In this document: piece after piece, positions 3,479-30,920 of the stretch | Layout of the letters: every line of letters begins with the position of its first letter | How positions within the stretch are numbered: the stretch's first letter is position 1 | Source of the DNA: Edaphobacter aggregans | GTDB taxonomy: Bacteria > Acidobacteriota > Terriglobia > Terriglobales > Acidobacteriaceae | Assembly: GCF_003945235.1 (NCBI RefSeq) | Contig: NZ_RSDW01000001.1 | Span: 5,100,001-5,132,000 of the forward strand | Length of the DNA: 32,000 bases | Reading direction: 5' to 3' | The notes under the pieces: generated by a model | The model's input: only the letters and a program-made list of their open reading frames with translations | The model's database searches: none | Told to the model about the DNA's origin: nothing | Translations under genes and position numbers: made by a program

Positions 3479-3542
3479 CCTGAAAACGAAATGGTTCTCG
3501 GCGCAACAGAAAGTTGCAGCCTGACCGGACCGAAAACAGGAC
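3479..3542 (+). repeat. Variant copy of the palindromic intergenic element, 27 nt upstream of the TonB-receptor start
   Basis: The sequence is CCTGAAAACGAAATGGTTCTCGGCGCAACAGAAAGTTGCAGCCTGACCGGACCGAAAACAGGAC. Its left module matches CCTGAAAACGGCGTTTTCGGCAAC at 11002. The right part retains AAGTTGC...CCGAAAAC. Confidence 0.45.
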
Positions 3543-3569
3543 GGCGGGAAGGAACCATTTGGAGGCAGC

Positions 3570-6500
3570 ATGAAACGATATCTATGGTTGGGTTCTACGG
3601 CCAACCACTTCTTCTACCGAACACTTCTTTTGATCGGCCTGGCCCTTGGACTGACGGGGGCGATGGCGGCGCAGACGGACACCGGCCGCGTGACCGGATC
3701 TGTGGCCGATGCCACGGGCGCAATCCTTCCAGGGGCGGTGATTACGCTCAAGAATGTCGAAACGGGGGCGGTGCGGAATGTAACCTCGGGTTCGGACGGA
3801 AACTTTACGTTCACGGCAGTGACGCGCGGCAGCTACCAGATCGGAGTGTCTAAGACCGGGTTCCAGACGACTGAACAGAGTTTTGTGCTGCAAGTGTCGG
3901 AGGTGCAGAGGATCGAATTCCGGCTTCAGGTGGGCGGGTCGAACACGATAGTGGAGGTAACGGGTGCGGCGCCGATCATCGATATCTCTACTTCCGCGAC
4001 GGGCGCAGTGATTGAAGGGAAGCAGGTGACGGACCTTCCGCTGAACGGACGGAACTTTACCCAACTAGCGGCACTGGTGCCGGGTGTGGCGCGTGGTAGC
4101 TTCTCAAGCGATGCGAGCGGCAGAAATTCGAACGTCGAGACCTTCCGATACAGCGACAGTGGCGGAGCGGCGCTGAACGTGAATGGGCTGCGTCCGCAGT
4201 CGAACAATTTTCTGCTGGATGGAACGGACAATAATGAGTCGCTGGTGAACACGATTGTGTTCTTCGCTCCACCCGAGGCGATTCAGGAGTTTCGCGTGAC
4301 GACCAGCGTTGCCCCGGCGGAGTTCGGGCGAGCTGGTGGTGCGATCGTGAATACGTCGATTAAATCGGGCACGAACCAGATCCACGGATCGATGTTCGGA
4401 TACTTCCGCGATCAGATCTTCGATGCGAGTCCGAATTACTTCAGCCCGACCACTGCGGCACCCACCTTCCAACGGAAACAGTTTGGCGTTGCTGCGGGTG
4501 GTCCACTTTGGAAGAACCGTCTGTTCCTCTTCGGCGACTATCAGGCGCTTCGGCAGAAGAGGCCTCAGGATGCGGGTTTCCAGACGGTGCCGACGCAGCT
4601 AATGCGTACGGGAAACTTCAGCGAATTGCTTGCCCAGAACATAACGACGGGTTCACCAAGCAACTACACTTCTCAGACGGGATGCACGGGCACGGTTGTG
4701 ATTCCGGGAGCGATCTATGATCCAACGACGTGCCAGGCCTTTGCGGGCAACATCATTCCAACAGCACGGCAGAATCAGGCGGGCGTCAATTATCTGAACG
4801 CGTTCGATCTGCCGTCTCGTAGCGGCGTGATCAACAATTACTATACGGTGCGCAAGTCGATTCAGAACTTCAACGATTTTGATGTGCGCCTGGACTGGCA
4901 CGCGAGCTCGAAAGACAGCCTGTTTACACGCTACAGCTACGGCCAGGACAACCTCAACATCAACAGCCTGTTCACTAAGTTGCCTGCGGGCTTTGCTTCC
5001 GGCGCCAACACCAACCATCCGCGTGGCGTGGCTGCGGGATATACACGCATCTTCACAGCAAATATCGTCAACGAATTTCGGTTTGGCTATACGCGGCCGG
5101 AGTATGCGTATATCAATCCGTTTGAAGGCACGCCGGTCTCAGCGAATCTGGGTATTGTGAACGCGAACCGGAATGCGTTGCTGGGCGGAGGTGCGCTGAT
5201 TGGCGGAGGCAATACGCAGATTGCGTATACCGGTGACGGAGGACCCTACTCGGTGCCACAGAAGAGCTACCAGTTTGCCGATGCAGTGACCTTTGTCCAT
5301 GGTCGGCATACGTTCAAAACTGGAGCTAACATCATTCGACGTGAGGTGGACTTCTTCCAGGGCAATGACTCGAAGGGCTACTTCGTTCTTGGCGGCCTGA
5401 ACTATCCGGGGACGGGACGGTTTACCGGTTATGAGACATCGGAGATTCTCGCCGGCTTCAGCGATTACGAGATCGGTGCGGCAAGCACGTACTTCAAGAC
5501 GAGGAACTGGGAGACGGGCTACTTTGTCCAGGACGACTGGAAGGTGACGAGACGGTTGACGCTGAACCTCGGGGTTCGCTATGACTTATATACGTTCCCG
5601 TACGAGTTGAACAACAACCAGTCGAACTACGACATTGCATCGGGTACGCTGAAGGTAGCGGGGGTGAACGGTAACTCGCGCAGCCTGGTAAACACGGACA
5701 TGAACAATGTTGCCCCTCGGCTGGGTTTTGCCTATGACCTGTTTGGAGACGGAAAGACGTCGCTGCGCGGGGGATATGGCATCTTCTACTTTCTTGACCG
5801 CGGCGGAATTGGCAACCAGCTAAGCAATAACCCTGGATATAACGGTGTGAGCAGCTATACGGCGGCGAATGGCTACCGTATTACCTTCTCGGGCCAGGGA
5901 CCTATGAATAGCAATGACAACACATTGGCGACGGCCGCGCTGCCGCTGCCTCCGTTTGGACCAAGCTCGGTGGATCTGCTGAATCCGACAAATGTGAATG
6001 TGATCGCAGTCCCGCAGAACAATCAGACCAGCAATGTGCAGCAATGGAACCTACAATTGCAGCAGCAGCTTGATCGTGCGACGTCGGTAAACATTGCTTA
6101 CGTTGGCAACAAGAGCGACCACTTGATGACGTGGTTCAACCTGAACTCGCCGGTGCTGAACGGCACCGGTGCCGGGCTGTATCCGAACCGCAACAATATC
6201 CAGGAGGGTCTTGCGGGCGGAACGGCGAAGTATAACGGGCTGCAGATGTTTGTGAATCGGCAACTGGCAGCGGGGTTGCAGGCGACGGTGGCCTACACAT
6301 GGTCGCATGGGCTGGACGACTCAAACGGTGCGTTTACTACGGGAACGGCAGGGGCTGGTGCTCGCATCTTCATCGAGAACGGCGGCCCGAATCTTCGCGC
6401 CAACTACGGAAGCAGTGATCTGGACCAGCGGCATCTGTTTGTAGCCAGCACGATCTATCAACTGCCTCTGGGGCGCGGCAAGATGTTTGGAACGAACATG

Positions 6501-7040: not shown

Positions 7041-7057
7041 CTGTTTGTATATTGTCT

Positions 7058-9054: not shown

Positions 9055-9342
9055 CCAGCACCGCATCGCCGTATACATCTCCTCGTCCGAGGATATCGCC
9101 ATGGAAAACGGGGGCACATAGGCGGTCTCCGGCGCTCCTGAGTTTGCGACTCCTCGCCCGAGACAAACAGCCCTAGTCCCTCATGCAGCCGGCGTCGTGA
9201 GCGCGCCGGCTTCCAACGACCGCACCTTGCAGAAGTGAAATCATATGGCGGCGACCGCGATCTCAGCATTATGCCAAGTGGGACAAACTTCAGCCCAACT
9301 CACATAAGGACTACCGAAGGTGTCAGTAGCCGATGGGGATGA

Positions 9343-9372
9343 CGAACATTCCGAAAACCCGACTTTTTCGGG
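9343..9372 (+). repeat. Palindromic intergenic element, core module
   Basis: The sequence is CGAACATTCCGAAAACCCGACTTTTTCGGG. It matches the 29-nt core and contains the CCGAAAA/TTTTCGG hairpin. Confidence 0.6.
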
Positions 9373-9519
9373 CATACGAGATAGCTTCCGGATAGCCGGT
9401 GATACGGCAACACAGTGCTCGTAGCGTGGTTTTGATCAGCTATCGCCGGTTTAGATAAACCGATAAGCATCTGAACGAAGCGGATATAATTCGGCACATA
9501 CGGTGGGTGCTCGTAATTG

Positions 9520-9909
9520 ATGAGTGATGATCTGGGCAATCCGGGAGAACCTGTGTCAGAGGTTGACCCGGATGACCTGAAGGCTTTCTGGCAGGAGACA
9601 CGTAACCTTCAAGCAAGACATCCCGGTCAGAATGTTGGTATGGGTCTTCACGTGATGAAAGCCACCTTCAAGCCGGGCGCGAACCTACCAGCGGTCTGGT
9701 ATCGCTCGGGCATGATTCAGATACTCAACCAAGTCGCGCAAGAGCAGTTGGCTCCTTGGGTCAAGGATGAAGAGGTTTCGGATGCTGTCTTCCGAACGAT
9801 GGCGACGATTCCGATGGAATGGGTCGGACACACTGACCGAGACGGCTTGCCCTTCGATGTGGAAGAGTTCTTCCGCCAATTGAGGGAAGACGGTGTGCAG
9901 AATGGCTGA
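9520..9909 (+). CDS. Hypothetical protein (acidic, no signal peptide)
   Basis: The ORF starts at the ATG at 9520, immediately after the track's TTG at 9517. I recognise no family. The composition looks protein-like (EEVSDAVFRTMATIPMEWVGHTDRDGLPFDVEEFFRQL). Confidence 0.45.
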   Translation: MSDDLGNPGEPVSEVDPDDLKAFWQETRNLQARHPGQNVGMGLHVMKATFKPGANLPAVWYRSGMIQILNQVAQEQLAPWVKDEEVSDAVFRTMATIPMEWVGHTDRDGLPFDVEEFFRQLREDGVQNG

Positions 9910-9934
9910 CATCGCCAAGCATGGAAGGGAGCGA

Positions 9935-10375
9935 ATGATGCTAAAGATCGCAATAGCTTGTCTCCTGCTTACGTTGAGTTCCGAAGCTCAAATAACTGAA
10001 TCCTGTAGGGTGATTCATGGTCGTGCACGCCGGTATTGTGGCGATGGCCAACTTCGCATCTGGCACATCGGAACACATCACGACTTCGAGCCGGACCGAT
10101 CCTCCTGGCAGAGGGTTGAAGGATGGCTTGAGGCTGGAGCGAAACCAACTGGTGCTTGCCAAGATAACGCCGATCTTTTTGCCGACTTTCTGATTTGTCC
10201 AACAGAACCCTATAAGAAAGGGGCGGTGCAGAAAGCAAAGGTGAAAGGCGCCTACCATCGGCGTTATGAGGCAGGCTCTGCTACGGCATTTGTCTTGACA
10301 CTGCATCATCTATTTCCTAGGGTTCCGGATGGTCGGCAACTCGAAAACAACCGAGCCGACGACGATCCGACTTGA
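9935..10375 (+). CDS. Hypothetical secreted protein
   Basis: The ATG at 9935 follows a GGAAGGGA RBS at 9923-9930. The signal peptide is MMLKIAIACLLLTLSSEAQ. I recognise no family. Confidence 0.5.
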   Translation: MMLKIAIACLLLTLSSEAQITESCRVIHGRARRYCGDGQLRIWHIGTHHDFEPDRSSWQRVEGWLEAGAKPTGACQDNADLFADFLICPTEPYKKGAVQKAKVKGAYHRRYEAGSATAFVLTLHHLFPRVPDGRQLENNRADDDPT

Positions 10376-10394
10376 CCTAGTTCCCCCAAACGGG

Positions 10395-10442
10395 ATCAGC
10401 GGCAACTTCGCGACGAACTTGCCGATAACCAGACTTTGCGCG
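10395..10442 (+). repeat. Palindromic intergenic element (partial left arm plus core)
   Basis: The sequence is ATCAGCGGCAACTTCGCGACGAACTTGCCGATAACCAGACTTTGCGCG. It begins 20 nt after the stop at 10375. Confidence 0.65.
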
Positions 10443-10548
10443 AGTTTGTATTGCTGAATCAGCAGAGCCATGGTTTGAAAACGGCACTGCGAGTGGAAAC
10501 GGTTTTAAATTTTCAAGCTCACCGTTTCCCCCGAGGTAAACTGCCCCC

Positions 10549-10962
10549 ATGCGATTTTATGCACAAGCCCGTTTGGCCAGAATTTCGCTGCCTTTGTTGA
10601 ACCTTGTAGCCTGTGCCTGTCAAATTCAATCCACGGTTCGCCACCCATCCACGGACCATACGTTGATGGCCATATTTTGGGGCTTGATTACCTTCCTCAA
10701 TGCGATCGCCTTTTGGGGCACGTATTGGAAGGTCACGCCACAAGGCCTACTTGAAAGCCGAGCAATGTTTTTGCGCCGCGCAATCCCCTACGACATCATT
10801 CAGGATGTCAGCCCGGATGATTCACCTCGTGGAAAACAGGACAATAGTCGGATTCGAGTTTCCATCCTTCTGGGCAAGCCGCTACTAGTCCGTCCGGACG
10901 AGTACGAGCGCTTCGTCTCTGCGTTGGAGCAGCACCTTGATCCTGTCCTGATACACGTCTAA
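10549..10962 (+). CDS. Hypothetical small membrane protein; start uncertain (alternative ATG at 10666)
   Basis: A TM-like segment MAIFWGLITFLNAIAFWGTYW is followed by a beta-rich domain of about 75 aa ending in a helix (PDEYERFVSALEQHL). Any resemblance to a bacterial PH-like fold is inference only. Confidence 0.45.
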   Translation: MRFYAQARLARISLPLLNLVACACQIQSTVRHPSTDHTLMAIFWGLITFLNAIAFWGTYWKVTPQGLLESRAMFLRRAIPYDIIQDVSPDDSPRGKQDNSRIRVSILLGKPLLVRPDEYERFVSALEQHLDPVLIHV

Positions 10963-11001
10963 GACGTAGAGTCAACAAACGCTCGCTTGACCGAGTTGTT
11001 C

Positions 11002-11070
11002 CCTGAAAACGGCGTTTTCGGCAACTACAGCGTGTCGGCCCCGAACTTTCCGATAACGTGACTTTGTAGG
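11002..11070 (+). repeat. Palindromic intergenic element, full bipartite copy
   Basis: The sequence is CCTGAAAACGGCGTTTTCGGCAACTACAGCGTGTCGGCCCCGAACTTTCCGATAACGTGACTTTGTAGG. It begins 39 nt after the stop at 10962 and ends 34 nt before the next ORF. Confidence 0.7.
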
Positions 11071-11104
11071 AAGGTACCTTTCAGATACGAAAATAGATAA
11101 ACTG

Positions 11105-11752
11105 ATGCTCGGGGATAGAACGATTTGCAGGAGCGGCGTGTTGGGCATGTGGCTAGACGGTAGTGGAGAGCGGCTCAATCAAGAGGAGTTTGAAGTTGAG
11201 GTCACTAATCAATCGGTGAGCGTCCGGCTGACTACATCGAGAAAATCTCCGCACGGAAGGTTCTATTGGGCTGCCTTCTTCGTGGCGCTCTGGATAGCGG
11301 GGCTTTGCCTGCTTGTCTTTGCCAATGGGAAGCACGGTGAACCGGGCATGTGGCATGACTTCGCGACAAACCCGCTCAACTCCTCAGGTTTCATCGCCCC
11401 CCTGCTCATACTCCTCTGCTGTTCGGCTTTATTAGTGCTCATCAGCTGGCGTTATGTCGTGATGGCGTACCCCTCGAACGAAACCTTTTACTGTGACCGG
11501 TCAACGCTGACAATCTCGAAAGTGCGCTGGCTAGACATCCACAATAAGGATTGGCGGACTCGATCCTATCCTCTCCGGCAGATCACAGGGTTGAAGTATC
11601 GATCCGTTGCTACAGCAAAGGGAGGTGCTGTCTATGGCCTTCGTTTCGAAGTAGAAGGCCGGTCAGAGCGCGTCCTTCCGGGTCTAGGAACTCATGACGC
11701 TGGCAAGATTCTGAAAGCCGTCAAATCGTTTGGAGCAAATGTAAACGAATAG
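11105..11752 (+). CDS. Hypothetical two-TM membrane protein with a C-terminal soluble domain; start uncertain
   Basis: The TM segments are FYWAAFFVALWIAGLCLLVF and FIAPLLILLCCSALLVLISW. A beta-rich domain of about 90 aa follows and ends in a helix (HDAGKILKAVKSFG). An AGGAG at about 11128-11132 could serve a GTG or ATG start slightly downstream of 11105. Confidence 0.5.
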   Translation: MLGDRTICRSGVLGMWLDGSGERLNQEEFEVEVTNQSVSVRLTTSRKSPHGRFYWAAFFVALWIAGLCLLVFANGKHGEPGMWHDFATNPLNSSGFIAPLLILLCCSALLVLISWRYVVMAYPSNETFYCDRSTLTISKVRWLDIHNKDWRTRSYPLRQITGLKYRSVATAKGGAVYGLRFEVEGRSERVLPGLGTHDAGKILKAVKSFGANVNE

Positions 11753-11780
11753 CCACAGTCTCAACCCCAAATGAGTCATT

Positions 11781-11801
11781 CCTGAAAAACGGGGTGGTCT
11801 C
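11781..11801 (+). repeat. Degenerate left module of the intergenic element
   Basis: CCTGAAAAACGGGGTGGTCTC resembles CCTGAAAACGGCGTTTTCGGC at 11002. It begins 28 nt after the stop at 11752. Confidence 0.4.
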
Positions 11802-11993
11802 AATGGGTCGACGCAACACTCAGCTCAGACCCACATTCATTGAAAACAAAAGCTAAATGCGCTGGCTAGGGCTAGATCAGCCGGAGCCTTACCCTGGCTA
11901 GGTTTGGCCACATCAGCCAAACAGATCGATTCTTCAGAGTAAGCATTTGTGGATCAGCTGATTAAATAGTGTTGCATTGACCGGTTGAGCTGG

Positions 11994-12045
11994 CAGGGGT
12001 TAGCGGAAACAACAACCGAAGTTGCCGAAAATGCGACTTTCGGGG
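11994..12045 (+). repeat. Palindromic intergenic element (degenerate left arm plus core)
   Basis: The sequence is CAGGGGTTAGCGGAAACAACAACCGAAGTTGCCGAAAATGCGACTTTCGGGG. It shares an identical 27-mer, TTGCCGAAAATGCGACTTTCGGGGAAC, with the copy near 28105. Confidence 0.7.
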
Positions 12046-12172
12046 AACAGTGACACGAAAAAAACAGCCCGAATAAACTTGCGCTCACATAACATCGGTT
12101 CTGGCTTCAGAGTCGCAAAAGCGAAGCCAGTCTTCTGTGGAAAGCGTTTCATCCATCCGGAATGAGGTCTGC

Positions 12173-15100
12173 ATGTCTTCGAAGGTAATCCTCGCTCGCT
12201 TTGTAGCCCTAGCTATACCCCTCGTGCTCCTCTCGGTCGCAGCATTATCGTCAGCTCAGTCGACCCCGGCTTTCGCTACCGTCGACGGCACTGTAACAAA
12301 CAATGGAGTTCAAGGCGCAGTTCGCTTGGAGCACGTGCCCTTACAACCCTCCGTTGGTGAAGATGGCTTCTCTTCCAAAGTCGCCGAGGATGGAACTTTT
12401 CACCTGGTAGACATTCCTCCTGGTACCTACCGCCTCCTTGCCGATGCCGAAAACCAGCTTCATGGCGTTTACGGCGCAGCAGATCTTTATCAGTCCGGCA
12501 CCCTTATCCAGATTCACCCAGGTGAACACCTTCGGGGCTTAGCCATTCGGCTGCTGCCTGACCCTCCCGCCATCTGTGGACAAGTTCTCGATGCGGCCGG
12601 CCGGCCGACGCTCGCCACTGTCGAAGCCTATGGTGTAAACGCCGATTTCGGCTCGGTGACTCGGCTAGAGAGCCCCACGCAGCTTACGAACGCCGATGGC
12701 CGCTTCCGTTTTCCTAACCTCTTCAATCAGGGACATTTCTTCCTGCGCGCCAATGGAACTTGGTATCCCTCTGCCGTCAGCTTTAGTGGAGCACGCCTGC
12801 TTGAGCCTGCACGAGCCGCGACAGGCGGACACTGCGTCGAAATCCGTCTCCAGCCTGACCGCTGCAAAGGTGTCCCACTTGCCGCGCACTTTGTCGATGC
12901 TCTAAAGTTTCCCATCTTCGAGTACGAGATTGCACTCTACGAAATCAATCCGTCCGGCCAGTTATTCGATTCGCAGGTCGTTCAGATCAACCAAGCCGAC
13001 GGGGTACATTTGGAGAATGTCTGTCCCGACCGATACATCGCGTCAATGCGCGACCGATGGGCAAAGCCGCAGCTCTTTGTTTCGCCGATCTTCACCGTTC
13101 AACCACCGGGTGGCTCGGTGGACCTGCACGAGAGCTCTCAGCCTGACCTGGGAAAGATTGTTGCCGCAGAGCTCAATCAGCCGCCCCTTGCCTCTGCAGA
13201 GCTTACCATCACTCTTGAAGGGTTGACCACGAAAGAGGGCTGTTCATCAGGAGTGATACAGCAAGCCAGTCTGTTTCGCGAGGGCGATCGGAACGCTGCG
13301 TTTGCGACAGCTGACAAGGACGGCCTCTTCCGTTGGAAGAATCTCCTCTCAGGCAACTATCGCATTGAGTACGGCTTCTGGGCTCACAACGCGGTCAACC
13401 TCAAAACCTTCTCCGTGGATGGCAAGGACGCCGATCCGACAGATTTCTACATTTCCCCCGGACGGGCCGTACAAGTTCATGTCGTGCTCAGCAACTTGCC
13501 CGCAAAGCATCCAAGCGCTCTTCCACTTCGTAACGCGTCTTCGCACGACCTACCTGCTGGCTTCCACCCGCCGGCGTCCCTCGTCGGCAAGGTCGAAGGA
13601 GAGCATGCGATGGACAGTGCTGCTGTTCTGCACTCCATTCGCTTCAACTCCGCCCGGTCCTCCGAATACCGCAGCCCCGTCGCTTCAGACGGCAACTTTC
13701 GGTTCGACCGCATCGACCCAGGTCTTTACACGCTTTGGGTAGAAAGCCCCGGCAACCCGGTTTCGGTCTACGGAGCCGAGGGCGTAGGGCTAGAAGGAAC
13801 TCCCCTCGTCTTCACCGCCGGGCAGCAAATCAAAAATCTGAAGGTCAACCTTTTTCCGACTCCTGGTATCTGCGGCCGAGTGGTAGATCTTGAAGGCAAT
13901 CCACGTATCGGCGTCCAGATAGGCTTTCAGGGGTTTCTGTCTCAATCCGCGCAAAATCAAACGGAGCGCACAGCTACTACCGACGAGAGCGGACGCTTTG
14001 ATCTGAAGTCGCCCGCGGTGCCTCCTGATCTCGAACTTTGGGAACAGGAACGGGGCACACGCACCTTTTATCCGTGGCAGCCGAACTATCGGCCCCTCTC
14101 GATCACTGCGAAGTCAGGCGATGACTCATACAATTCCCGTTGCCCTTACACGTTGCAGATGGCCTCTCCGGCTGAAGGCAATGGCGGCGGAATCACCATA
14201 GCAGGAACTGTCGCAGGCACTTACAGCCCGGCGAAGGGAGAGCACCTTTGGGCGATTCTCAGCCCCGTCAGCAACCGGCTCGCACCGAAGCCAGTCAAGA
14301 TAGACATCAAGGATATGAGCTTTGCCTTCTCAGCCATCACTCCAGGCGAGTACATCCTCACGTTGATAGATGGTCTCGGCAATGCCATGATGTCGTGCTC
14401 GGCGGTTTGCTACGGAGAAACCACCTACATCCGTGACTCGCAGAAAGTAACGGTTACCGCGTCTCCACAGAGCAACTTGACCCTCCAACTACGACCGCTG
14501 CCGCAAGTGATCGGTGAATTGACAATCGATGGAAAACCGCCGGTACCCGGCCCACAAACCCATTGGAAAGACTGGACGGCATGGTTGGTTAGCTCCCGAC
14601 ACGGCCAACCGCCAGACAGCGCCAAACTCGACGAACGAGGGCACTTTTCGCTTCCTGCTCTCGGAACCGAGTCTCATTCCTTTCTCTTCAACTATTTTTG
14701 GCCTGACTATGCCGTTAGAAAGATCACTATCGACGGAAACGAAGTGAGCCCGGACGACATCCGTTTGACCTATGGCCAAGTTGCTCATATGGTTGTCGAC
14801 GTCACCACGGTGACGAGTCAGGGAAGCGTTCACAGCTCACCCTCAAACCCGCCGGTCGACTCCTTCCGCGATCTTTGCGCGAATTTCGTCGGGGCACCTG
14901 CCTATTCTGCTCTCCTCATCCCTGATCCCATCTCGTCTCCCAATCCGCAATTTCCGATAAAGCAGGGCAGGGAGACGGGGACTTTGTATACGGCATCGTT
15001 CCATGGAATCCTGCCCGGGCATTATCGTGTGCTCGCATTCGAGAATCTTCTTTTCACAAATGAGTTTCGGAGAAGAGCCGGTCAGGCGTTGCTGGAGAAT

Positions 15101-15259: not shown

Positions 15260-15280
15260 TAAATTCTGCTTAGATCAAGG

Positions 15281-15329
15281 ACGGTACCGGAAACTTGAAA
15301 CGAACTTGCCGAAAACCCGACTTTGCAGG
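15281..15329 (+). repeat. Palindromic intergenic element (degenerate left arm plus core)
   Basis: The sequence is ACGGTACCGGAAACTTGAAACGAACTTGCCGAAAACCCGACTTTGCAGG. It begins 22 nt after the stop at 15259. Its core equals the 30893 copy apart from one T. Confidence 0.7.
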
Positions 15330-15418
15330 CAATTCGACCTCTACGCCTCGGAGAGCCGTATAATTCGAGCGAATCGGCGCAGTAAAACGAGATTCGAGTT
15401 AAGGAGAGAGCAAGTACG

Positions 15419-16363: not shown

Positions 16364-16552
16364 ATCGTCTCTAAGCCCTTCGCCCCCAAGAATCCGTGTC
16401 CATCTTGTCCAAACGACCCCAACCGCTTGTGGAGTCGAGCTCAACTGCCAACTCGCATTTTGCCCCAACGGGCATCCGGCTGAGAATCTTGCGCGTCATT
16501 TTGACGTTGTCAACCTGTGACGGTGGGCGATACTTAATGGTTTGATGAAGTA

Positions 16553-18172: not shown

Positions 18173-18364
18173 TTTCCTAATAACTAAAAGTTCAAAGTCA
18201 ATGGTTGCTTCCCCAGGCATTTCTTGTGCTCATGACTTAAAGACAACAGAGCGGTTAACTGCAAAAATCAATAAGCGGTTGCGGTTTGGGGCACACTGAA
18301 ATAAGACAACTTCCCATGTGGGGACAGAATCTTCCGCTCCTAAGAGCGAGAGCAACCTAGGTCA

Positions 18365-19930: not shown

Positions 19931-20087
19931 GATTCGAGAAAACTTCCTTCGCGGGTACAAGCCTGGACAGCAGCTTATTACGTGCAACATGGTCTAGTCT
20001 TCGAATGGTTCAGGCTGATTGCTTGAGTCACTGCTGAGTCGGCGAATGCTCCATAAAAAATATTTGAGGTAGTCGTTTAGCCACCGC

Positions 20088-20137
20088 TGTTGTTTTTCTA
20101 ATTAAGTGGCGCACTATTTGCTAATTATTTGGCACAC
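20088..20137 (+). repeat. Left terminal inverted repeat, made of two tandem ~25-bp subrepeats
   Basis: The sequence is TGTTGTTTTTCTAATTAAGTGGCGCAC followed by TATTTGCTAATTATTTGGCACAC. Both subrepeats share TTTKCTAATTA..TGGCRCAC, which I take to be reiterated transposase-binding sites. Confidence 0.8.
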
Positions 20138-20163
20138 AGAGCGCTAGCTCAGTTCAGCATCCA

Positions 20164-21135: not shown

Positions 21136-22531
21136 GGACGTCCTCTCTTTGCATGCCTCTTCTGAATTCCAGCAAAGTGTCAACTGTCTTCAGTCGATCC
21201 CTAACGATGGTTCGCAGTTGCTCCCGGCGACGTTTGCGAGCGTTCACGATGTCTCGAAGCGGTACTGTTTGGCCGGCCAAATCGGCCGAGATGGCTCGGC
21301 ATAGGAAGCGGTCACGGTAGAAGACGCGGATCTCGCCCATGTCCCTGGGGTCAAAGCGAATCGTGACATCTTCCCCGACGTAGGCCGCCAGTGTTAACGA
21401 CAGGTAGCGGAAGTTATGAAAGTGAATGCCATCAGTTCGGACTTTGCGCGTACGGACCTCGTGGATGAGCAGGAGGTCCAGTCGTTCTATGCTGTCTGGC
21501 ATGCGCGGCAAGAAGCCACCCTGTTCCCATCGCTCTTTGGGGGACGGGTTGCCTTCTGAGCTTGGCCTCCGGTGGTAAACCTCCAGTAGGAACGTGTGGA
21601 ACTGTTTCTCGAAAGAGTCGAGCGTAAGCGTAGGCTTTCGTCCGCTCCTTGTGGTGTAGCCATCCAGGTCGCACAAAAACATCTCGTTTACCGTGCGAAA
21701 GAATCGCTCGATGCGGCCTCGACCCTGAGGCTGCCCTGGCGTGGAGAATACAAGCTGGATCTTCAGGTCCGCCGCCACCTGCTCAAGATGTTTTGAGCGG
21801 AAGTCGGAACCGTTGTCGGTGTACAGATGGTCTGGAATGCCACAGATTTCCCAATGGGGATCACCTTTACGCCAGATACCCTGACGCAGCGCCAAGGTTG
21901 TGCGAAGGGAAGAAGGCGGCTCGAATCCGAGATAATACCCCGCCACGGCTCGGCTGTAGTCATCGATGACGATGGTCAGCCAGGGCTTCCCCACGGAACC
22001 ATCGTCGCGCAGCAGCTTGATGTCGAGTTGCGCGTGATCGACCTGCCATATCGAGTTCGGCCTGAACGCTTCTCTCCGGTGAACCAGATCGAAGCCCTCG
22101 CTGTATACCCTGTTGCCTCGGTGCGCCAGCATAACCAACCCAGCTGGGAGGGTCTGTACGATTCGCCGAACAACTGCATAGCTCGGTTTGCTCTCTTTAA
22201 GAGTCTCTGCTATCGCGCTTGCCTGCCGGTGGATAGAACTCATCGGGAGTGGTGGTCGTTCAAGCGCGAGACCCTCGATCGCCTTTACCAACGTTGTCGA
22301 CGCTAGCCTTCGTCCTCCCTGATCACTCCGGCTCCGACGGGCCAAGGCAGCCAGCCCATCCTTGCGATATCCATTCGCCCAACGCAATGCTGTTCGATAG
22401 GGAATCGACGCTTCAGAAGCCACAGTACGCAGCGGACGCGCCTCTTCCAGGTGTGGCCGGAGCAGTTGGAGGCGTTGGAGGGCAATCTCACGCGACGCTT
22501 GCGGTATGGCGGAAAGCTCGTCCACACGCAA
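21071..22531 (-). CDS. tniA: TniA-like DDE (rve-type) transposase with a Mu-transposase-like C-terminal domain
   Basis: There is an N-terminal HTH region. The DDE triad contexts are SIWQVDHAQLD, LYTDNGSDFRS and GRGRIERFFRTVN. The C-terminal VRTDGIHFHNFRY...VTIRFDPRDMGEIRVFY resembles Mu_transpos_C. The start is TTG at 22531 or GTG at 22525, directly abutting the right inverted repeat. Confidence 0.85.
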   Translation of the reverse strand: MRVDELSAIPQASREIALQRLQLLRPHLEEARPLRTVASEASIPYRTALRWANGYRKDGLAALARRSRSDQGGRRLASTTLVKAIEGLALERPPLPMSSIHRQASAIAETLKESKPSYAVVRRIVQTLPAGLVMLAHRGNRVYSEGFDLVHRREAFRPNSIWQVDHAQLDIKLLRDDGSVGKPWLTIVIDDYSRAVAGYYLGFEPPSSLRTTLALRQGIWRKGDPHWEICGIPDHLYTDNGSDFRSKHLEQVAADLKIQLVFSTPGQPQGRGRIERFFRTVNEMFLCDLDGYTTRSGRKPTLTLDSFEKQFHTFLLEVYHRRPSSEGNPSPKERWEQGGFLPRMPDSIERLDLLLIHEVRTRKVRTDGIHFHNFRYLSLTLAAYVGEDVTIRFDPRDMGEIRVFYRDRFLCRAISADLAGQTVPLRDIVNARKRRREQLRTIVRDRLKTVDTLLEFRRGMQREDVHASMVTPVESKRSKLKRYFNE

Positions 22532-22533
22532 AA

Positions 22534-22583
22534 GTGTGCCAGATAATTAGCAAAATGTATGCCAAATAATTAGCAAAACGACA
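22534..22583 (-). repeat. Right terminal inverted repeat, made of two tandem subrepeats
   Basis: The top strand reads GTGTGCCAGATAATTAGCAAAAT followed by GTATGCCAAATAATTAGCAAAACGACA. Its reverse complement is TGTCGTTTTGCTAATTATTTGGCATACATTTTGCTAATTATCTGGCACAC. Confidence 0.8.
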
Positions 22584-22590
22584 GCTCATT

Positions 22591-23508
22591 TTGGCGCCTC
22601 CAGCACCCGACGGCAGGGAAGGGGAGCCCCTGGCCCTCACCCCGGCCCAGGCTTTGCTGCGCAAGATGGTGCTCGACACCGTCCCGTCGCCCCACTCCAA
22701 GCGCAACTACGGGAAAGCCCTCGACGATCTGTTCCAATTCTGTGCCAGCCGACCTCTCTCCCGGTCCTTATTAATGGAGTGGCGGGCGGGCATGGAGCCG
22801 CTCTCACCCTCCACTATAAATGTCCGGCTTTCGGCGGTGCGGAAGTTGGTGGGCGAGGCCAGGCGGAACAACATGATCGGATCGGAGGAGGCGGCCAGCC
22901 TGACCGACATCCCCAACATCCGTCAGAAGGGAACCCGGCTGGGGAACTGGCTGACCCGCGAACAGGCCAAGGAGCTGCTGGCCGTCCCCGACCGCTCGAC
23001 GCTCAAGGGCAAACGCGACTACGTCATCCTGGCGCTTCTTGTGGGCTGCGCCCTGAGACGGAACGAACTGGCCGAGCTTGACGTCGCGACCATCCAACAA
23101 AGGGAGGGGCGCTGGGTCCTGGCCGACCTGGAGGGCAAAGGCCGCCGCATCCGCACCGTTGCTGTCCCGATCTGGGTCAAGCAAGGCATCAACGCGTGGA
23201 TGACCGCGGCCGGCATCGAAGACGGACGGCTGTTGCGGTCGGTTTCGAAGAGCGGGAAGGTCAATCGCGACACCTTGAGCGACTGGGCGGTCTGGTCGGT
23301 AGTTGAACAGTCATCCAAGCAAATCGGGATCGAGCGCTTCGGCGCCCACGACCTGCGCCGTACCTGCGCCAAGCTCTGCCGGAAGAACGGCGGGGACCTG
23401 GAGCAGATCAAATTTTTGCTGGGGCACTCCTCGATTCAGACCACCGAACGCTATCTGGGCTCCGAACAGGATATTGAGATCGCGGTGAACGACAACCTAG
23501 GGCTGTAA
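22591..23508 (+). CDS. Tyrosine recombinase / phage-type site-specific integrase
   Basis: The catalytic contexts are LLVGCALRRNELAEL (Arg), GKGRRIRTVAVP (Lys), HDLRRTCAKL (His-x-x-Arg) and LLGHSSIQTTERYL (His, Tyr). The N-terminal SAM-like core-binding region is SPHSKRNYGKALDDLFQFC...STINVRLSAVRKL. The start is uncertain: the track's TTG at 22591 lies 8 nt from the transposon end, and the first ATG is at 22666. G+C is visibly higher than in both flanks. Confidence 0.85.
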   Translation: MAPPAPDGREGEPLALTPAQALLRKMVLDTVPSPHSKRNYGKALDDLFQFCASRPLSRSLLMEWRAGMEPLSPSTINVRLSAVRKLVGEARRNNMIGSEEAASLTDIPNIRQKGTRLGNWLTREQAKELLAVPDRSTLKGKRDYVILALLVGCALRRNELAELDVATIQQREGRWVLADLEGKGRRIRTVAVPIWVKQGINAWMTAAGIEDGRLLRSVSKSGKVNRDTLSDWAVWSVVEQSSKQIGIERFGAHDLRRTCAKLCRKNGGDLEQIKFLLGHSSIQTTERYLGSEQDIEIAVNDNLGL

Positions 23509-23649
23509 CATTACCTTGCTTTCTCGAAGACAGCGAAGCAGGAGCGTGTGCAGTGGGTTCCCAGCCCGTAGGCTCTTTGCAGCTTGGAGCTCGACTGTTA
23601 TAAGGTAGATAAGCTACTGTCTCAAGGATGTTTTCTCTAGAGGTTCTAC

Positions 23650-23862
23650 ATGACAGTGATGGAGCAGACGATCAAATCTTTGGTTCTCGATAAAGTTCGG
23701 CAAGCGCCACTTCGTCCAACGGAACTTGTTAGAGAACTTAGCGACGACGCATATCCGAGGGAAGTCGAGAACGCCTTATCGGGGCTTCTGGATGAAGGAA
23801 CTGTTGTCTTCGGCTCGGACCGAAGGCTCAGCGTGGCTAAGACGTTTACGGTCGCCGTGTAA
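23650..23862 (+). CDS. Small (70 aa) winged-helix-like protein
   Basis: An AGAGG RBS lies 7 nt before the ATG at 23650. LRPTELVRELSDDAYPREVENALSGLLDEGTVVFGSDRRLSV looks like helix-turn-helix followed by a wing; this is inference. The stop TAA at 23860-23862 is 1 nt before an in-frame TTG of the next gene. Confidence 0.45.
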   Translation: MTVMEQTIKSLVLDKVRQAPLRPTELVRELSDDAYPREVENALSGLLDEGTVVFGSDRRLSVAKTFTVAV

Positions 23863-23863
23863 T

Positions 23864-25252
23864 TTGCATTCCAGAACAACACTTTACCAACGTCTTCATA
23901 AAGAACCTGGTCCACACGAAGGTGATGATCGATCACCATTCGAAGAGGACCGGGATATAGTTCTGTACTCCTCAGCATTCAAACGACTACTTAGCGTCAC
24001 TCAGGTCGCTTCGGCGTCGGCTGGTTATCTGTTTCATACGCGTCTCACTCATAGCCTTCAAGTCGCTCAAGTTGGCCAGCGACTTGCAGAGAAGTTGCTG
24101 AAGAAGCAGCCTGAGCTGGCACAAGAGCTCGGAGGACTCGATGCTAGCATCGTAGAAACGGCTTGCCTGGCTCATGACATTGGTCATCCACCATTTGGGC
24201 ATTTGGCAGAAGACGCTCTTGACGAAAAAGCACGGAGTTTTGGGGGCTTTGAAGGGAATGCCCAAAGCTTTCGGATCGTTACTCAATTGGGTATTCGATC
24301 CTTAAACTATCGCGGATTGAACCTGACCGTTGGAAGTTTGCGGGGCCTTCTTAAATACCCTTGGCTATACGCTGACAGACCGTCGGACCCAAATCACGCG
24401 ACTGGCAAAAAGCCGAAATGGGGGGCCTATGACTGCGATCGAGATGCATTCGTAAATGTTTGGGGACTCGATGGCAGTGATCGAGTTGTTCGGCGCGCCC
24501 CGGAAGCAGAGCTGATGGACTGGGCCGATGATGTCACCTACTCAGTTCACGATGTAGAGGACTTTTTTCGTGCGGGCCTAATTCCGCTGCATTTGCTCAA
24601 GTCATATGGCGTATCGAAGGGCAGGGAACCAAAGAACCCTCTGCGAAGAGAACGGAAGGAGAGGGAGAGGTTCTTTGAATACATAGTTCAGAATGAGCGT
24701 AAAGACAAAATCCTGACAGGGTTATCGGTTGAAGAGATTGCAGAGATTTTCGATGATCTCTTGATCTACGCCGCCTTCGCTTTTGAACAGCCATACGAGG
24801 GTACCCGAGAGGATCACGCTCATTTAAGGACATTCACAAGTCGGCTGATCAGTCGCTTCATAAACGAATTGCAGTTGCGGGCGCCAGACGGGGATGGTGG
24901 GTCTACCGTCACGAAAGCTGTGCTGGCGCAGCAAGAGCTCGCCATACTGAAACAACTTACGTGGTTTTACGTGATCGAAGCACCGGCACTAGCAATGCAA
25001 CATCAGGCTCAAGATAAGATAATCCGAAAATTAGCGGATATTTTTCTCCAAGAGGCTCACCAAGAAAAGCCCAGCGGTGTCTTGCCTATTTACTATCGGG
25101 AGCTTTTTCGAATGCCCGATATGACCGACACAGAAAAGAGTAGAGCTGCGATTGATCTAATCGCCGGCATGACAGAAAGTCAAGCGACGGCCGTATATCA
25201 GAGAATCGAAGGGATATCCCTCAGTTCGGGTATAGACAAAATTTTAGTTTGA
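23864..25252 (+). CDS. Dgt-family HD-domain dNTP (dGTP) triphosphohydrolase-like protein
   Basis: The motifs are SPFEEDRDIVLYSSAFKRLLSVTQV, HTRLTHSLQVAQVGQRL, ACLAHDIGHPPFGH and ELMDWADDVTYSVHDVEDFFRAGLI. I placed the start at the TTG at 23864, which could be translationally coupled to the upstream ORF. The alternative ATG at 23792 would overlap that ORF by 71 nt. The track start at 23726 is unlikely. Confidence 0.85.
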   Translation: MHSRTTLYQRLHKEPGPHEGDDRSPFEEDRDIVLYSSAFKRLLSVTQVASASAGYLFHTRLTHSLQVAQVGQRLAEKLLKKQPELAQELGGLDASIVETACLAHDIGHPPFGHLAEDALDEKARSFGGFEGNAQSFRIVTQLGIRSLNYRGLNLTVGSLRGLLKYPWLYADRPSDPNHATGKKPKWGAYDCDRDAFVNVWGLDGSDRVVRRAPEAELMDWADDVTYSVHDVEDFFRAGLIPLHLLKSYGVSKGREPKNPLRRERKERERFFEYIVQNERKDKILTGLSVEEIAEIFDDLLIYAAFAFEQPYEGTREDHAHLRTFTSRLISRFINELQLRAPDGDGGSTVTKAVLAQQELAILKQLTWFYVIEAPALAMQHQAQDKIIRKLADIFLQEAHQEKPSGVLPIYYRELFRMPDMTDTEKSRAAIDLIAGMTESQATAVYQRIEGISLSSGIDKILV

Positions 25253-25265
25253 TCAATTGTAGAGA

Positions 25266-25294
25266 GGTAAGTATCTGTTAAATATAGACTTACC
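25266..25294 (+). terminator. Hairpin after the dGTPase gene (no T-tract; weak terminator candidate)
   Basis: GGTAAGT (25266-25272) pairs with ACTTACC (25288-25294), with a 15-nt loop. It lies 14 nt after the stop at 25252. Confidence 0.3.
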
Positions 25295-25408
25295 ATCACG
25301 TCAACCAACGTGCATTGGGAATGCAGGGCAATTTTCTCATTTTAAATTTGTGAATCACATTGGATCTACCTAGGATCAAAAGGAAAGAGATAATACTCCC
25401 AGGCGGTG

Positions 25409-25437
25409 TTGACATTGGTGAGAGCAGCCTCATAATG
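25409..25437 (+). promoter_or_regulatory. Sigma-70-like promoter candidate for the 67-aa / ClpP-like gene pair
   Basis: TTGACA (25409-25414), a 17-nt spacer, then ATAATG (25432-25437). It sits in an A+T-rich 280-bp gap about 95 nt upstream of the ATG at 25533, which has an AGGAG RBS at 25523-25527. Confidence 0.4.
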
Positions 25438-25532
25438 TAAACACTCGTTTGGTTAGTCTTTTGCAGAGCTTGTAAACGGTAAGGCGCGCAAACCTTCACG
25501 CTGAGATAAGCGTCCAAGAAATAGGAGTTCAT

Positions 25533-25736
25533 ATGTCAGCAGTTGCCAAAGTTCTTCGCGAGCAGTCGGATGATCTGGACACCGCGCTTGAATCTATCTC
25601 GGAACGGTGGCATGGAAATTTATCTGCTTATCTCGACGCGTTGGCTCGCGCGAAGGAAGCCGCTGAGGCTTCTCGTGAAGAACAAGGCGGCGTCCGGACG
25701 GCTGCGACGATCACTCGGGGTCTCAATAGCCGATAG
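25533..25736 (+). CDS. Small (67 aa) helical hypothetical protein
   Basis: It has a good RBS and ATG. The sequence is charged and helix-like (LREQSDDLDTALESISERWHGNLSAYLDALARAKEAAEASREEQ). The stop TAG at 25734-25736 is 2 nt before the next ATG, which suggests coupling. Confidence 0.5.
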   Translation: MSAVAKVLREQSDDLDTALESISERWHGNLSAYLDALARAKEAAEASREEQGGVRTAATITRGLNSR

Positions 25737-25738
25737 AT

Positions 25739-26935
25739 ATGGCCACGAAGATCGCAGCGTACAGAGAGAATCCTAATAGAGCGATCTTCATAACGGGTGA
25801 GATCAACCAGGCCATGGTCGATCGTCTGACCCCTCAAATTATTCAGCTGCAGAGGGCCGATAATGAGCCGATCACCGTCTATATCGACAGCCCGGGTGGT
25901 AGCACCTATCACGCGGGACTCTTGCTTCAGCTACTCAAGAACAGAGACCAAGATGGGTTGTCCGTTAGGATCATAACAGTCGTGACCGGACTTGCGGCTA
26001 GCGCGGCAGCCGATATCTTAGCGGCTGGCGACTACGCCATTGCGTATAGACACGCGATTATTCATTTCCACGGAGTTAGAACCAGCCGCGGCGATGCGAT
26101 TACACATGAGTCTGCATCCTCTTTAGCCGAAGCACTACGCCAGACTAATGAAAGCTACGCATTGGAACTTGCCCAAGAAGTTCTGGGAAGATTCATGTTC
26201 ATCTACATGCAGCTTTCAAGTGAGTTTGAGAGCGTTCGTGAGGAAAAGCATGCTGCATCAGACGTCGAGTGCCTCGCCGAATCTATAACCGCCAAACTAG
26301 GAGGCATTTCCAGCCTGTTAACTTTGGCTGTCGACAAACATAAGCAACTCTGCGATTTGTTAGAGCATTACTCTCAAGAGCTCGAAGCTCAAGTTGAAAC
26401 GTTTTCGCGGCCGGCTCTCAAAGAAGCTTTCCTTCTCAAATTTTTGATTCATTGGGAACTCGGGAGGAATCAAGAACAAGACTGGCGTTTCCGATCTGAC
26501 GGCCTAAACGCGATCAGAGAGGATTTTGTTTTGTTGGCTGATTATGAGGATGGAACTCACATGTCCAATTTGGATCAGTTAACCAAGCGCTGGGGAGTAT
26601 TTCTTTTGGATGGCGCTCAGCGGCTCGTATACGATGGCCTTCCAACCGTTGATAGACCCAACTATATTCATCAGCAAACGAAAGATCGGTTTCGACATGT
26701 CTGGCATTTCCTTGTATCGGTGTGTCGAGCGCTCCAACAGGGCGAAAATCGTCTTACTGCAACCAACGCCTATTGGTTGGGATTAATAGATGAAGTTCCC
26801 GGAACTAAGCTTGCGACGATACGGGAAATGCTTGAGAACCGGAATGACATAGTAGCTGAACCATCACCATCTTCGGGAAATCAGAAAAAACCAACGAAGG
26901 TTGCCAAGAAGAAAAGTATCAAAACTGAGCTATAA
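25739..26935 (+). CDS. ClpP-fold (S14/S49-like) serine peptidase with a large helical insertion and a lysine-rich tail
   Basis: The N-terminal AIFITGEINQAMVDRLTPQIIQLQRADNEPITVYIDSPGGSTYHAGLLL...VVTGLAASAAADILAAGDYAIAYRHAIIHFHGV follows the ClpP pattern (I.L.G.I..., YINSPGG, G.AAS, IH). Candidate catalytic Ser and His are retained. A ClpP-like C-terminal motif, LTATNAYWLGLIDEV, reappears only about 200 aa later. Confidence 0.75.
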   Translation: MATKIAAYRENPNRAIFITGEINQAMVDRLTPQIIQLQRADNEPITVYIDSPGGSTYHAGLLLQLLKNRDQDGLSVRIITVVTGLAASAAADILAAGDYAIAYRHAIIHFHGVRTSRGDAITHESASSLAEALRQTNESYALELAQEVLGRFMFIYMQLSSEFESVREEKHAASDVECLAESITAKLGGISSLLTLAVDKHKQLCDLLEHYSQELEAQVETFSRPALKEAFLLKFLIHWELGRNQEQDWRFRSDGLNAIREDFVLLADYEDGTHMSNLDQLTKRWGVFLLDGAQRLVYDGLPTVDRPNYIHQQTKDRFRHVWHFLVSVCRALQQGENRLTATNAYWLGLIDEVPGTKLATIREMLENRNDIVAEPSPSSGNQKKPTKVAKKKSIKTEL

Positions 26936-27399
26936 GAAGCGACTTACAAGCAGGAGAAACTTTCAATGCGGGTCCATCGGACGCATGACCCTCGAGTAAT
27001 CTCATCGGATGGATCTGTGAAATCAGAGAAAGCTGAACATCGACGTTTTAGAGGCTCTGCGGAGAAGTAATTCTTGCTTAGTCGTGCAGAAGCGTCACAC
27101 CGACATTTCGAACCTGAAAATGCGGTTTCCAGCAGTTATTACAGGTGGTCTCGTAAAGCTCTCGCTTCAGCTAAATTGATCTTGGCGCGACGGAGGCTTG
27201 CTGGGCATACGACAGATATCACCACAAAAACTACGACAAATAATTCCTCAAATCACAATCTTGGAGATCGGGTGCTCGGCTATCCCGATCCAGGCGCGAA
27301 GGCAGTCGCAGTCTGGTTGCGTGCAGCCACCGAAGCGCTCTTCGCACACTAAGCCCTCAAATCTGATCAGGGCAGAATTCTTCGATGGAGCGTACACTA

Positions 27400-27442
27400 G
27401 GCAGCAAACAGCTCGAAGTTGCCGATAACCCGAGTTTCAAGG
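27400..27442 (+). repeat. Palindromic intergenic element (core with degenerate left arm)
   Basis: The sequence is GGCAGCAAACAGCTCGAAGTTGCCGATAACCCGAGTTTCAAGG. Confidence 0.6.
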
Positions 27443-27575
27443 CTGTATCAACGCATCCGAAAGATACCTGACTCGTCGAGTTTCATCTGAACTAAAAGTG
27501 CATTCGCGCTTCGTTCGCCCGAATGTTTTAACGCGGACTTGAACGAGCTCTCTTCGCGTCCGCGATCTTGCGCGT

Positions 27576-28050: not shown

Positions 28051-28133
28051 GGCGGGAAAGCAGGGTTATCGGCAACTTAGCCCGTCCGAAGCGACCTAAT
28101 CGCCCGAACTTGCCGAAAATGCGACTTTCGGGG
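28051..28133 (+). repeat. Palindromic intergenic element, long bipartite copy
   Basis: The sequence is GGCGGGAAAGCAGGGTTATCGGCAACTTAGCCCGTCCGAAGCGACCTAATCGCCCGAACTTGCCGAAAATGCGACTTTCGGG. GTTATCGGCAAC and TTGCCGAAAA form the inverted arms. Confidence 0.7.
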
Positions 28134-28295
28134 AACTTCGTCCGCGGGAGCCAGCGCGCAAAAAAAGATTAGTAAACAGACGAGTGTTTCTTGGTACTAG
28201 TTCTGTTCAACTGGACAGCTGATGGATGAGTGCATTGCCTTGTTATCGCCATTTAGGCTTCGATATTCCTATTCGAGGCCAAGTATCCCCTGAAA

Positions 28296-30731: not shown

Positions 30732-30860
30732 ACTCGACCCTCGCGGCGTGATGCCAACCATGATCGCATGCGATTGCTGCTCCGACCAGTTCTCCACCCA
30801 TTCAAGTATCGATTGGCGCGAAATCTCCGAAGCTGTAGCGCGATATACAGGAGTTCATCT

Positions 30861-30920
30861 GCCGAAAAACGGTGTTATCGGCAACTTCGAGTCGAACTTG
30901 CCGAAAACCCGACTTGCAGG
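30861..30920 (+). repeat. Palindromic intergenic element, best-preserved full copy
   Basis: The sequence is GCCGAAAAACGGTGTTATCGGCAACTTCGAGTCGAACTTGCCGAAAACCCGACTTGCAGG. It lies in the divergent gap between the permease (minus strand) and the 31080 ORF (plus strand). Confidence 0.75.

Follow-up and report, generated by a model that had tools for sequence, protein, structure and literature searches.

A REP-like family of 36-bp intergenic sites in Acidobacteriaceae linked to a Xer-like tyrosine recombinase

A co-oriented array of palindromic units in Edaphobacter aggregans

The stretch of DNA analysed here, hereafter the window, comprises 32,000 nucleotides of Edaphobacter aggregans (contig NZ_RSDW01000001.1 of assembly GCF_003945235.1, positions 5,100,001 to 5,132,000) and encodes CarboxypepD_reg TonB-type outer-membrane proteins, a MacB/FtsX permease and Trans_reg_C+PD40 proteins, a gene content in keeping with Acidobacteriaceae, with a short palindromic element recurring in the gaps between its genes. 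An earlier reading of the letters alone (the original prediction) had described this element as resembling a repetitive extragenic palindrome (REP) or bacterial interspersed mosaic element (BIME), present in a single orientation and carrying four interchangeable pairing segments that suggested a role at the RNA level. The first part of that description is borne out, as the element recurs between genes both as single units and as inverted pairs, and its sequence is specific and not that of random palindromes. We propose, with moderate confidence, that it is a DNA-level site rather than an RNA, one of a REP-like family served by a Xer-like tyrosine recombinase. The description that best fits our observations is that of a REP-like family of 36-bp recombinase-type sites of Acidobacteriaceae, an analogue of the REPtron (a REP transposase gene framed by REPs) without an HUH enzyme.

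Alignment of the copies resolves two 36-bp subtypes, a right unit, U (CGAACTTGCCGAAAA-CCCGAC-TTTGCGGGAACTTCG), and a left unit, L (CGAAGTTCCCGAAAA-ACGGGG-TTTTCGGAAACTTCG), each an imperfect palindrome in which 15-bp inverted arms flank a 6-bp asymmetric centre (15-6-15) and in which sequence variation is concentrated in the centre. The 5′ end of U is CGAAC, the position at -1 being variable. L resembles an inverted U with a different centre, in agreement with the initial observation that the left module approximates the reverse complement of the core, and a profile built from 58 left modules identifies it as a separate conserved subtype rather than a decayed U. It lies 3-30 nt upstream of about 30% of U units, and further companion modules recur beside U, resulting in a BIME-like mosaic.

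Eight U units lie in the window, all on the plus strand, as the original prediction had counted. Seven match the 29-mer consensus with 0-2 mismatches (at 10414, 11042, 12017, 15301, 27414, 28105 and 30893), where shuffled sequence gives an expectation of 0, and the eighth is recovered by profile (15.7 bits at 9351-9367) together with the module that follows it. Five of the eight carry an L, one of which is split by a 200-nt miniature inverted-repeat transposable element (MITE). The diverged U at 9343-9378 (CGAACATTCCGAAAACCCGACTTTTTCGGG) runs into a third module, M3 (GATAGCTTCCGGATAGCCGGTGATACGG), at 9372-9412, and the same U+M3 composite is found in 14 other loci. A degenerate L at 10380-10410 (6.6 bits, a weak match) precedes the U at 10414-10447 (32.9 bits), and homology of the window to a related locus, L002 (loci are designated by L numbers), begins exactly at 10414. 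A full pair follows, with L at 10997-11028 (32.3 bits), a 12-nt spacer and U at 11041-11073 (22.3 bits), and is kept 3′ of the same 137-aa gene in L002, L121 and L122. The U at 12016-12049 (38.1 bits) has its L divided into a left half at 11776-11794 (12.1 bits) and a right half at 11995-12016 (GGGGTTAGCGGAAACAACAAC) by the MITE at 11795-11994, so that what had been taken for a left-module variant at 11781 is the left half of this L. Further along, the U at 15301-15335 (40.9 bits) retains a partial L remnant (GGTACCGGAAACTTGAAA) within 15283-15335, and the solo U at 27414-27444 (25.9 bits) forms the junction of two homology blocks, the upstream one common to L092 and the downstream one to L044. 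Between convergent genes an L remnant at 28051-28079 (14.6 bits at 28063-28078) is followed after a 25-nt spacer by the U at 28104-28139 (42.2 bits). Finally, in a divergent intergenic region, the L at 30859-30889 (28.7 bits) is followed directly by the U at 30892-30920 (30.9 bits).

The identical 27-mer shared by the copies at 12017 and 28105 (starting at 12022 and 28110) and the loss of a single T that separates those at 15301 and 30893 had both been read correctly. Among the proposed left modules, those at 10997-11028, 30859-30889, 28063-28078 and, as a left half only, 11776-11795 are recovered, and that at 10380-10410 weakly so; neither the supposed variants at 3479 and 27113 nor a supposed opposite-orientation copy at 16449-16480 gave a match at E<=10 from the U or L profile. 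All sites of the window are orphans; together they make up one co-oriented array, in a variable region interrupted by a low-GC island.

M3 (consensus approximately ACGGGATAGTTTCCGGATAGCCGGTGATACGG) is located directly 3′ of U in at least 14 loci, those outside the window including L004, L008, L013, L023, L052, L058, L065, L075, L079, L083, L087 and others, and its reverse complement stands upstream of some recombinase genes (e.g. in L137). After U at 9372 in the window, and after U in 14 further loci, stands the sequence GATAGTTTCCGGATAGCCGGTGATACGG. A separate recurrent module, GAGTGCATTGCC(C/T)TGTT(G/A)TCGCCA, occurs at about 28225-28258 in the window, where 90 nt separate it from the U at 28105 on its upstream side. 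It is also found in L029, L046, L055, L068, L071, L078, L085 and L109, and in genomes other than that of the window it directly adjoins U on the 5′ side.

Distribution and orientation across the family

A scan of species-representative genomes with a 23-nt pattern located the element in at least 120 loci, nearly all of them from Acidobacteriaceae (Edaphobacter, Granulicella, Tunturiibacter, KBS 89, KBS 146 and many metagenome-assembled genomes, MAGs), with three chance matches in Marinilabilia and Ignavibacteria; a plasmid collection contained no match. Adjacent strong units within one 8-kb locus lie on the same strand in 72 cases and on opposite strands in 6. Most of the intervals of 300-1100 nt between units hold one open reading frame (ORF) of 100-290 aa, which may run in either direction, and many of these ORFs encode a signal peptide or membrane helices. 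Local duplication of flanking DNA, one conceivable origin of such arrays, is ruled out, as units differ at 9.95 of 36 positions within a locus and at 9.86 between genomes. Units of one locus being no more alike than units of different genomes, the arrays are not local duplications, and a common consensus has been maintained across the family.

The direction of neighbouring genes has no bearing on unit orientation. With confident gene calls the contexts number 17 for >U>, 20 for <U<, 22 for the convergent >U< and 12 for the divergent <U>, and unit strand and coding strand are unrelated (49% coding-strand share). In L107 three units are antisense to Pfam-confirmed genes, and in L213, where small genes follow one another, almost all gaps contain one unit, be they convergent, divergent or tandem. 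As orientation is random relative to genes elsewhere, the co-direction of units and genes in the window is a local coincidence; the rule of a constant plus-strand orientation holds inside the window and fails relative to genes elsewhere, and with it falls the proposed tie to gene direction. Replication direction was likewise rejected as the determinant, since the GC-skew intercept against unit strand is 0.003 +/- 0.012, in 8-kb blocks whose skew is noisy enough (standard deviation 0.12) to limit replication-strand inference, and since orientation also switches within 32-64 kb on single contigs. Positions 1-4000 of the window, where the genes lie on the minus strand, show an unusually strong positive plus-strand GC skew, of 0.34 in the first 2 kb and 0.23 in the next.

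These observations bear directly on whether the element could be an RNA-level or transcriptional signal, that is, a four-segment attenuator, terminator, promoter or operator acting on neighbouring genes, a possibility we now regard as highly improbable. The window by itself would encourage it, as units there lie 13-46 nt past stop codons and 32-160 nt ahead of the next start, co-directionally with the genes, and the L+U pair at 30855-30930 folds well as single-stranded DNA (-16.4 kcal/mol, z -3.9). Elsewhere, however, orientation is random and units occupy convergent, divergent and tandem gaps alike. Of the single units, L folds well (-10.7 kcal/mol) and U only poorly (-5 kcal/mol, z -1.95); among three full pairs folded from the window, two did no better than shuffles. 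Covariation was not found within U, where mutual information shows neighbour effects only; bases of L and U at would-be pairing positions change without regard to one another (T:A 27, A:A 16, A:T 9, T:T 8), and conserved mismatches, C:C included, are never compensated. No Rfam family, Acido-1 and Acido-Lenti-1 included, passed its gathering threshold anywhere in the window, and none reached E<=5 in the part densest in units, 9200-15500. A scan for intrinsic terminators and sigma-70 promoters found neither a T-tract nor a sigma-70 match at the units, an extracytoplasmic function (ECF) sigma factor promoter does not fit the 12-nt gap between AAC and CGAC, and a sigma-54 promoter would require an offset of 12 from GG to GC where the units have 19. 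The RNA-level role through four pairing segments is thereby abandoned.

A recombinase gene framed by inverted units

The window encodes a tyrosine recombinase on its plus strand at 22591-23508 (Pfam Phage_integrase; NCBIfam Xer-like models below their cut-offs), homologues of which are present in 5 of the 21 loci with at least three units and in none of the 95 other loci. The intact recombinase of L051 is a Xer-like protein of 318 aa. In every close relative with enough flanking sequence, a unit ends 55-150 nt ahead of the recombinase ATG, either the reverse complement of U, rc(U), or a unit of L type, and in 8 of 10 independent loci a U begins 5-40 nt past the stop codon. The gene is thus bracketed by rc(U) and U in L051, L102, L130, L210, L211/212, L213/214, L216 and L217/218, and L199 also belongs to the close-relative loci with unit flanks. 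The neighbours of the recombinase differ in every bracketed locus, and in alignments the similarity between loci stops exactly at the outer edges of the two units. Among 70 more distant relatives, 14 carry an L-like AAACGGGNTTCG motif at a fixed position of -62 to -72. Three lineages (L139, L142 and L189) are bracketed by diverged repeats of their own, e.g. AGTCGCGTAACCGGTAACT, whose homology to rc(U) is still recognisable.

The protein is a simple Xer-like enzyme of the Phage_integrase fold. Its nearest characterised relatives are XerA, XerC and XerD and its nearest solved structures XerA and XerD; it scores 92-114 bits against the XerC model (cut-off 335) and 80-104 bits against the XerD model (cut-off 330), and the integron-integrase model (TIGR02249 / NF011946), whose cut-off is 265 bits, aligns to the C-terminal part only, at 38.7-44.8 bits. 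At E<1e-60 the L051 recombinase has more than 7,700 relatives, annotated only as 'integrase' or 'XerD'. Just before the recombinase ORF a conserved hairpin encloses the Shine-Dalgarno sequence and the ATG (L210 9970-10003, e.g. ATTGATCGGTGGCACGGAGGCCACCGGTCATG), with an equivalent in most of L130-L218, which suggests translational control of the recombinase.

A model for site use and array formation

An enzyme gene framed by inverted copies, in combination with the 15-6-15 geometry, leads us to read U and L as putative cognate sites of the recombinase, a reading in which the linkage is observed and the activity is inferred. The unit has the anatomy of lox, FRT and dif sites, its two 15-bp inverted arms and 6-bp asymmetric centre comparing with arms of about 11-15 bp and centres of 6-8 bp, and its linkage to an enzyme is seen both in the bracketing of 8 of 10 close-relative loci and in the diverged sites of diverged lineages. 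In the model the recombinase would bind the arms and cut at the edges of the centre, and its action, or that of an ancestor, would have spread orphan solo U units and miniature L+U pairs through intergenic DNA. The asymmetric centre would give each site a direction, and a circle integrating at an existing site would leave directly repeated sites, resulting in co-oriented arrays around single genes whatever the direction of those genes. Integration into directional sites would also account for unit orientation changing in mirror fashion at the recombinase of L051, L102, L130 and L213. In L213 eight co-oriented units upstream of the recombinase have the 7-nt centre variant that is found in its proximal site. 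Five '<- ->' orientation flips occur among pattern-selected loci; Phage_integrase genes lie inside three of them and an IS110 element inside another.

We tentatively extend this model to an integron-like cassette system without IntI or attC, in which the framed Xer-like recombinase might take up, excise and rearrange segments of one gene each, using directional sites that number in the hundreds, and so give rise to the co-oriented arrays of genes for small secreted or membrane proteins that the window and related genomes display; we consider this possible and rather doubtful. Arrays adjoin the recombinase in L213 and L130, but most have no recombinase within 8 kb, and the ORFs between units run in either direction. 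Synteny breaks fall within 40 nt of a unit in 135 of 532 cases, against 3.9% by chance, a figure inflated by IS110 and MITE copies inside units and for that reason not used as cassette evidence.

Several observations count against the recombinase-site reading itself. Around 70% of U units have no L partner, no recombination product or circular form was seen, and the edges of the recombinase unit show no target-site duplication. An empty site was sought through the VWFA-like neighbour of L210 and not found, both flanks differing in relatives so that the attempt was uninformative. Among the 80 best metagenomic relatives (61-68% identity), most have no unit that the U profile recognises, and bracketing repeats exceed shuffles in just 5 of 67. 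In the window, the recombinase at 22591-23508 lacks a unit past its stop codon, and the upstream and downstream parts of the array share one orientation, unlike the mirror pattern at L051, L102, L130 and L213. Unit counts are per 8-kb locus and not per genome, and recombinase and repeats could both merely be enriched in accessory-genome islands.

Rival mobile-element explanations

The anatomy of the family is that of REPs in many respects, and a classical REP/BIME origin would have an HUH Y1 transposase encoded elsewhere, whether a REP-associated tyrosine transposase (RAYT), a terminal inverted repeat-associated one (TIRYT) or a class 3 TnpA, make and spread the palindromes, which might serve as stabilisers of mRNA 3′ ends or as gyrase or integration host factor (IHF) sites, the link to the recombinase being secondary. 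The short imperfect palindrome, the solo and inverted-pair arrangement, the mosaic modules and the excess of convergent (22) over divergent (12) contexts all fit this origin, as does targeting by IS110-family insertion sequences (ISs) and a MITE, known for REPs (PMC11208160), and Acidobacteria have been reported to encode TIRYTs and class 3 TnpA(Y1) with high-copy hairpins (PMC3733652, PMC6006769). We nevertheless judge it quite improbable. The unit has no GTAG, CGTC or CnGA foot, the gene that sits between inverted units, the hallmark of a REPtron, encodes a recombinase with the Phage_integrase fold, REPs are not known for strong local co-orientation, and tblastn with approximate IS200 TnpA and YafM queries, a search of low sensitivity, returned nothing significant and no Y1 transposase in about 1 Mb of unit-bearing loci.

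A purely selfish miniature element is an unlikely alternative, in our estimate. L+U would then be an internally deleted, non-autonomous form of rc(U)-recombinase-U, solo U units would be decayed halves, and arrays would reflect an insertion preference for permissive island DNA with no movement of host genes. The arms of L+U match the ends of the recombinase unit in sequence and arrangement, with a 6-30-nt spacer in place of the gene; recombinase clusters contain up to 270 near-identical members, suggesting active multiplication, and units cluster in variable regions that also bear ISs. Against this, the 72:6 co-orientation and the presence of one unit in nearly every gap of an array, irrespective of gene direction, go unexplained, no target-site duplications are visible (and empty sites were not found in the one uninformative attempt), L is a distinct conserved subtype and not a decayed U, and the consensus is preserved to the same degree within genera as between them, a pattern more suggestive of selection than of recent bursts.

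Insertions into units

The MITE that splits an L of the window is about 200 nt long and has terminal inverted repeats of about 25 nt (GGTCTCAATGGGTCGACGCAACACT / AGTGTTGCATCGACCGGTTGAG). Eight further copies are present in other Acidobacteriaceae MAGs (two each in L035 and L038, one each in L109, L112, L108 and L130) at 80-96% identity, six of them at 89-96% and the diverged copy of L108 at 80%, and each sits within an L or U unit beside the centre. Furthermore, a multi-copy IS110-family element of about 1.45 kb is inserted likewise within L units in L005 (about 1339-2725), L008, L014, L031, L041, L048, L059, L079, L096 and L037 (5538-6530), the junctions in L005 reading ...CTCCCGCAAA / IS / ACGGGGTTTCGGCAAC.... 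Its assignment follows from Pfam DEDD_Tnp_IS110 and Transposase_20 and from a score of 214 bits, where the cut-off is 140, with the NCBIfam model 'IS110 family RNA-guided transposase'. REPs are known targets of IS110 elements (PMC11208160). The target loops of the IS110 bridge RNA should, we predict, match the unit centre. A second IS110 lineage is present in L216, L093, L012 and L058.

Comparison with known systems

In size and repetition the units answer to the description of REPs (20-40 nt, many intergenic copies), being 36 nt long and present eight times in the 32-kb window and in at least 120 loci. They share with REPs and REPtrons the short imperfect intergenic palindrome occurring singly and in inverted pairs, the mosaic modules, the role of IS110 target and the enzyme gene framed by two inverted copies. 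The framed gene, however, encodes a Xer-like tyrosine recombinase where the REPtron has an HUH Y1 transposase, and the units differ from REPs, whose feet are defined as GT(A/G)G, CGTC or CnGA (PMC3733652, PMC6006769), in the lack of a GTAG foot, the 15-6-15 core-site geometry, the strong co-orientation of neighbours and a consensus that holds across genera.

With integrons and clusters of attC sites lacking an integrase (CALINs) the family has in common that imperfect palindromic sites, co-oriented in arrays, stand between single genes, most of them small and of unknown function. Some arrays (L213, L130) are bordered by a tyrosine recombinase, and a paired L+U corresponds to two inverted 'simple sites' with slightly different centres, as in attC; both attC and the units are targets of IS110/IS1111-type elements. 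In contrast to integrons, the L and U consensus sequences have no RYYYAAC or GTTRRRY boxes, the recombinase does not bear the IntI signature, genes run in either direction, units lie on both sides of the recombinase, and most sites are solo and, at 36 bp, too short for a folded attC. The units were also rejected as attC because the published Acidobacteria model is canonical (GCCUAAC-AacuC-GUUgAAGCg) and unrelated to the element.

Likeness to Xer/dif and pdif systems lies in the nearest relatives of the enzyme (XerA, XerC, XerD), in a short palindrome with a 6-bp centre and in modules bounded by sites. The differences are scores far below the equivalog cut-offs, many sites per genome where there is a single dif, and a recombinase framed by its own sites; in the pdif modules of Acinetobacter plasmids, moreover, sites alternate in orientation, unlike the co-oriented arrays described here. 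As in invertons and shufflons, a recombinase lies between two inverted sites, so that the segment could invert, the hairpin over its Shine-Dalgarno sequence and ATG being a further point of comparison, yet here hundreds of sites are dispersed and most form direct repeats in arrays; we obtained no evidence for both orientations of any segment.

A search of full-text literature turned up no account of this repeat and no acidobacterial tyrosine recombinase with a dispersed repeat family framing it; what it yielded for Acidobacteria were reports of TIRYT and class 3 Y1 transposases with other hairpins (PMC3733652, PMC6006769). The enzymes connected with dispersed palindromic repeats have until now been of the HUH (RAYT) class, and those connected with cassette arrays integron integrases; the enzyme linked to the present family is of a different class. 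The host family is among the most abundant bacterial families of soil, and the recombinase family is thousands strong in soil metagenomes. If the sites are active, they would provide a mechanism for the notable accessory-gene variability of Acidobacteria, a natural example of REP-like families arising around tyrosine recombinases, and a new, compact pair of recombinase and 36-bp site for genome engineering. For annotation and assembly the units are relevant as synteny breakpoints and as landing pads of IS110 elements or the MITE.

The window recombinase and neighbouring features

The recombinase of the window is a paralogue, 44% identical to the unit-bracketed family, and was rejected as the cognate enzyme on account of this identity, the missing unit after its stop codon and a 5′ side cut by an IS. 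The latter is a 2.5-kb IS-like transposon at 20086-22585, inserted 5 nt upstream of the recombinase ORF, with 52-nt inverted ends that are 83% complementary. Two minus-strand genes, for an rve + Mu-transposase-C protein (21071-22531) and an AAA_22 ATPase (20164-21183), lie within the transposon, which probably truncates the 5′ end of the recombinase.

The transposon and the recombinase lie within the low-GC stretch, at about 15400-27400 (0.49-0.51, against 0.55-0.62 elsewhere), that breaks the unit array. This stretch also encodes an HD + HD_assoc phosphohydrolase (23726-25252), a ClpP-like protein of 398 aa (25739-26935) and three large proteins, of 314, 539 and 521 aa, that match no family, and is possibly an acquired island or a defence locus.

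The 137-aa gene that precedes the L+U pair at 10997-11073 encodes a bPH_4 domain and has a different neighbourhood in each genome examined. In all homologues (L002, L121-L124) a conserved TATAAACTGC-like box (10533-10548 in the window) ends about 4 nt before the ATG, which suggests a transcript that is leaderless or has a very short leader. Upstream of the homologue in L123, at 1-3800, lie three adjacent Phage_integrase genes, two of them in tandem, which may represent a 'recombinases in trio' element.

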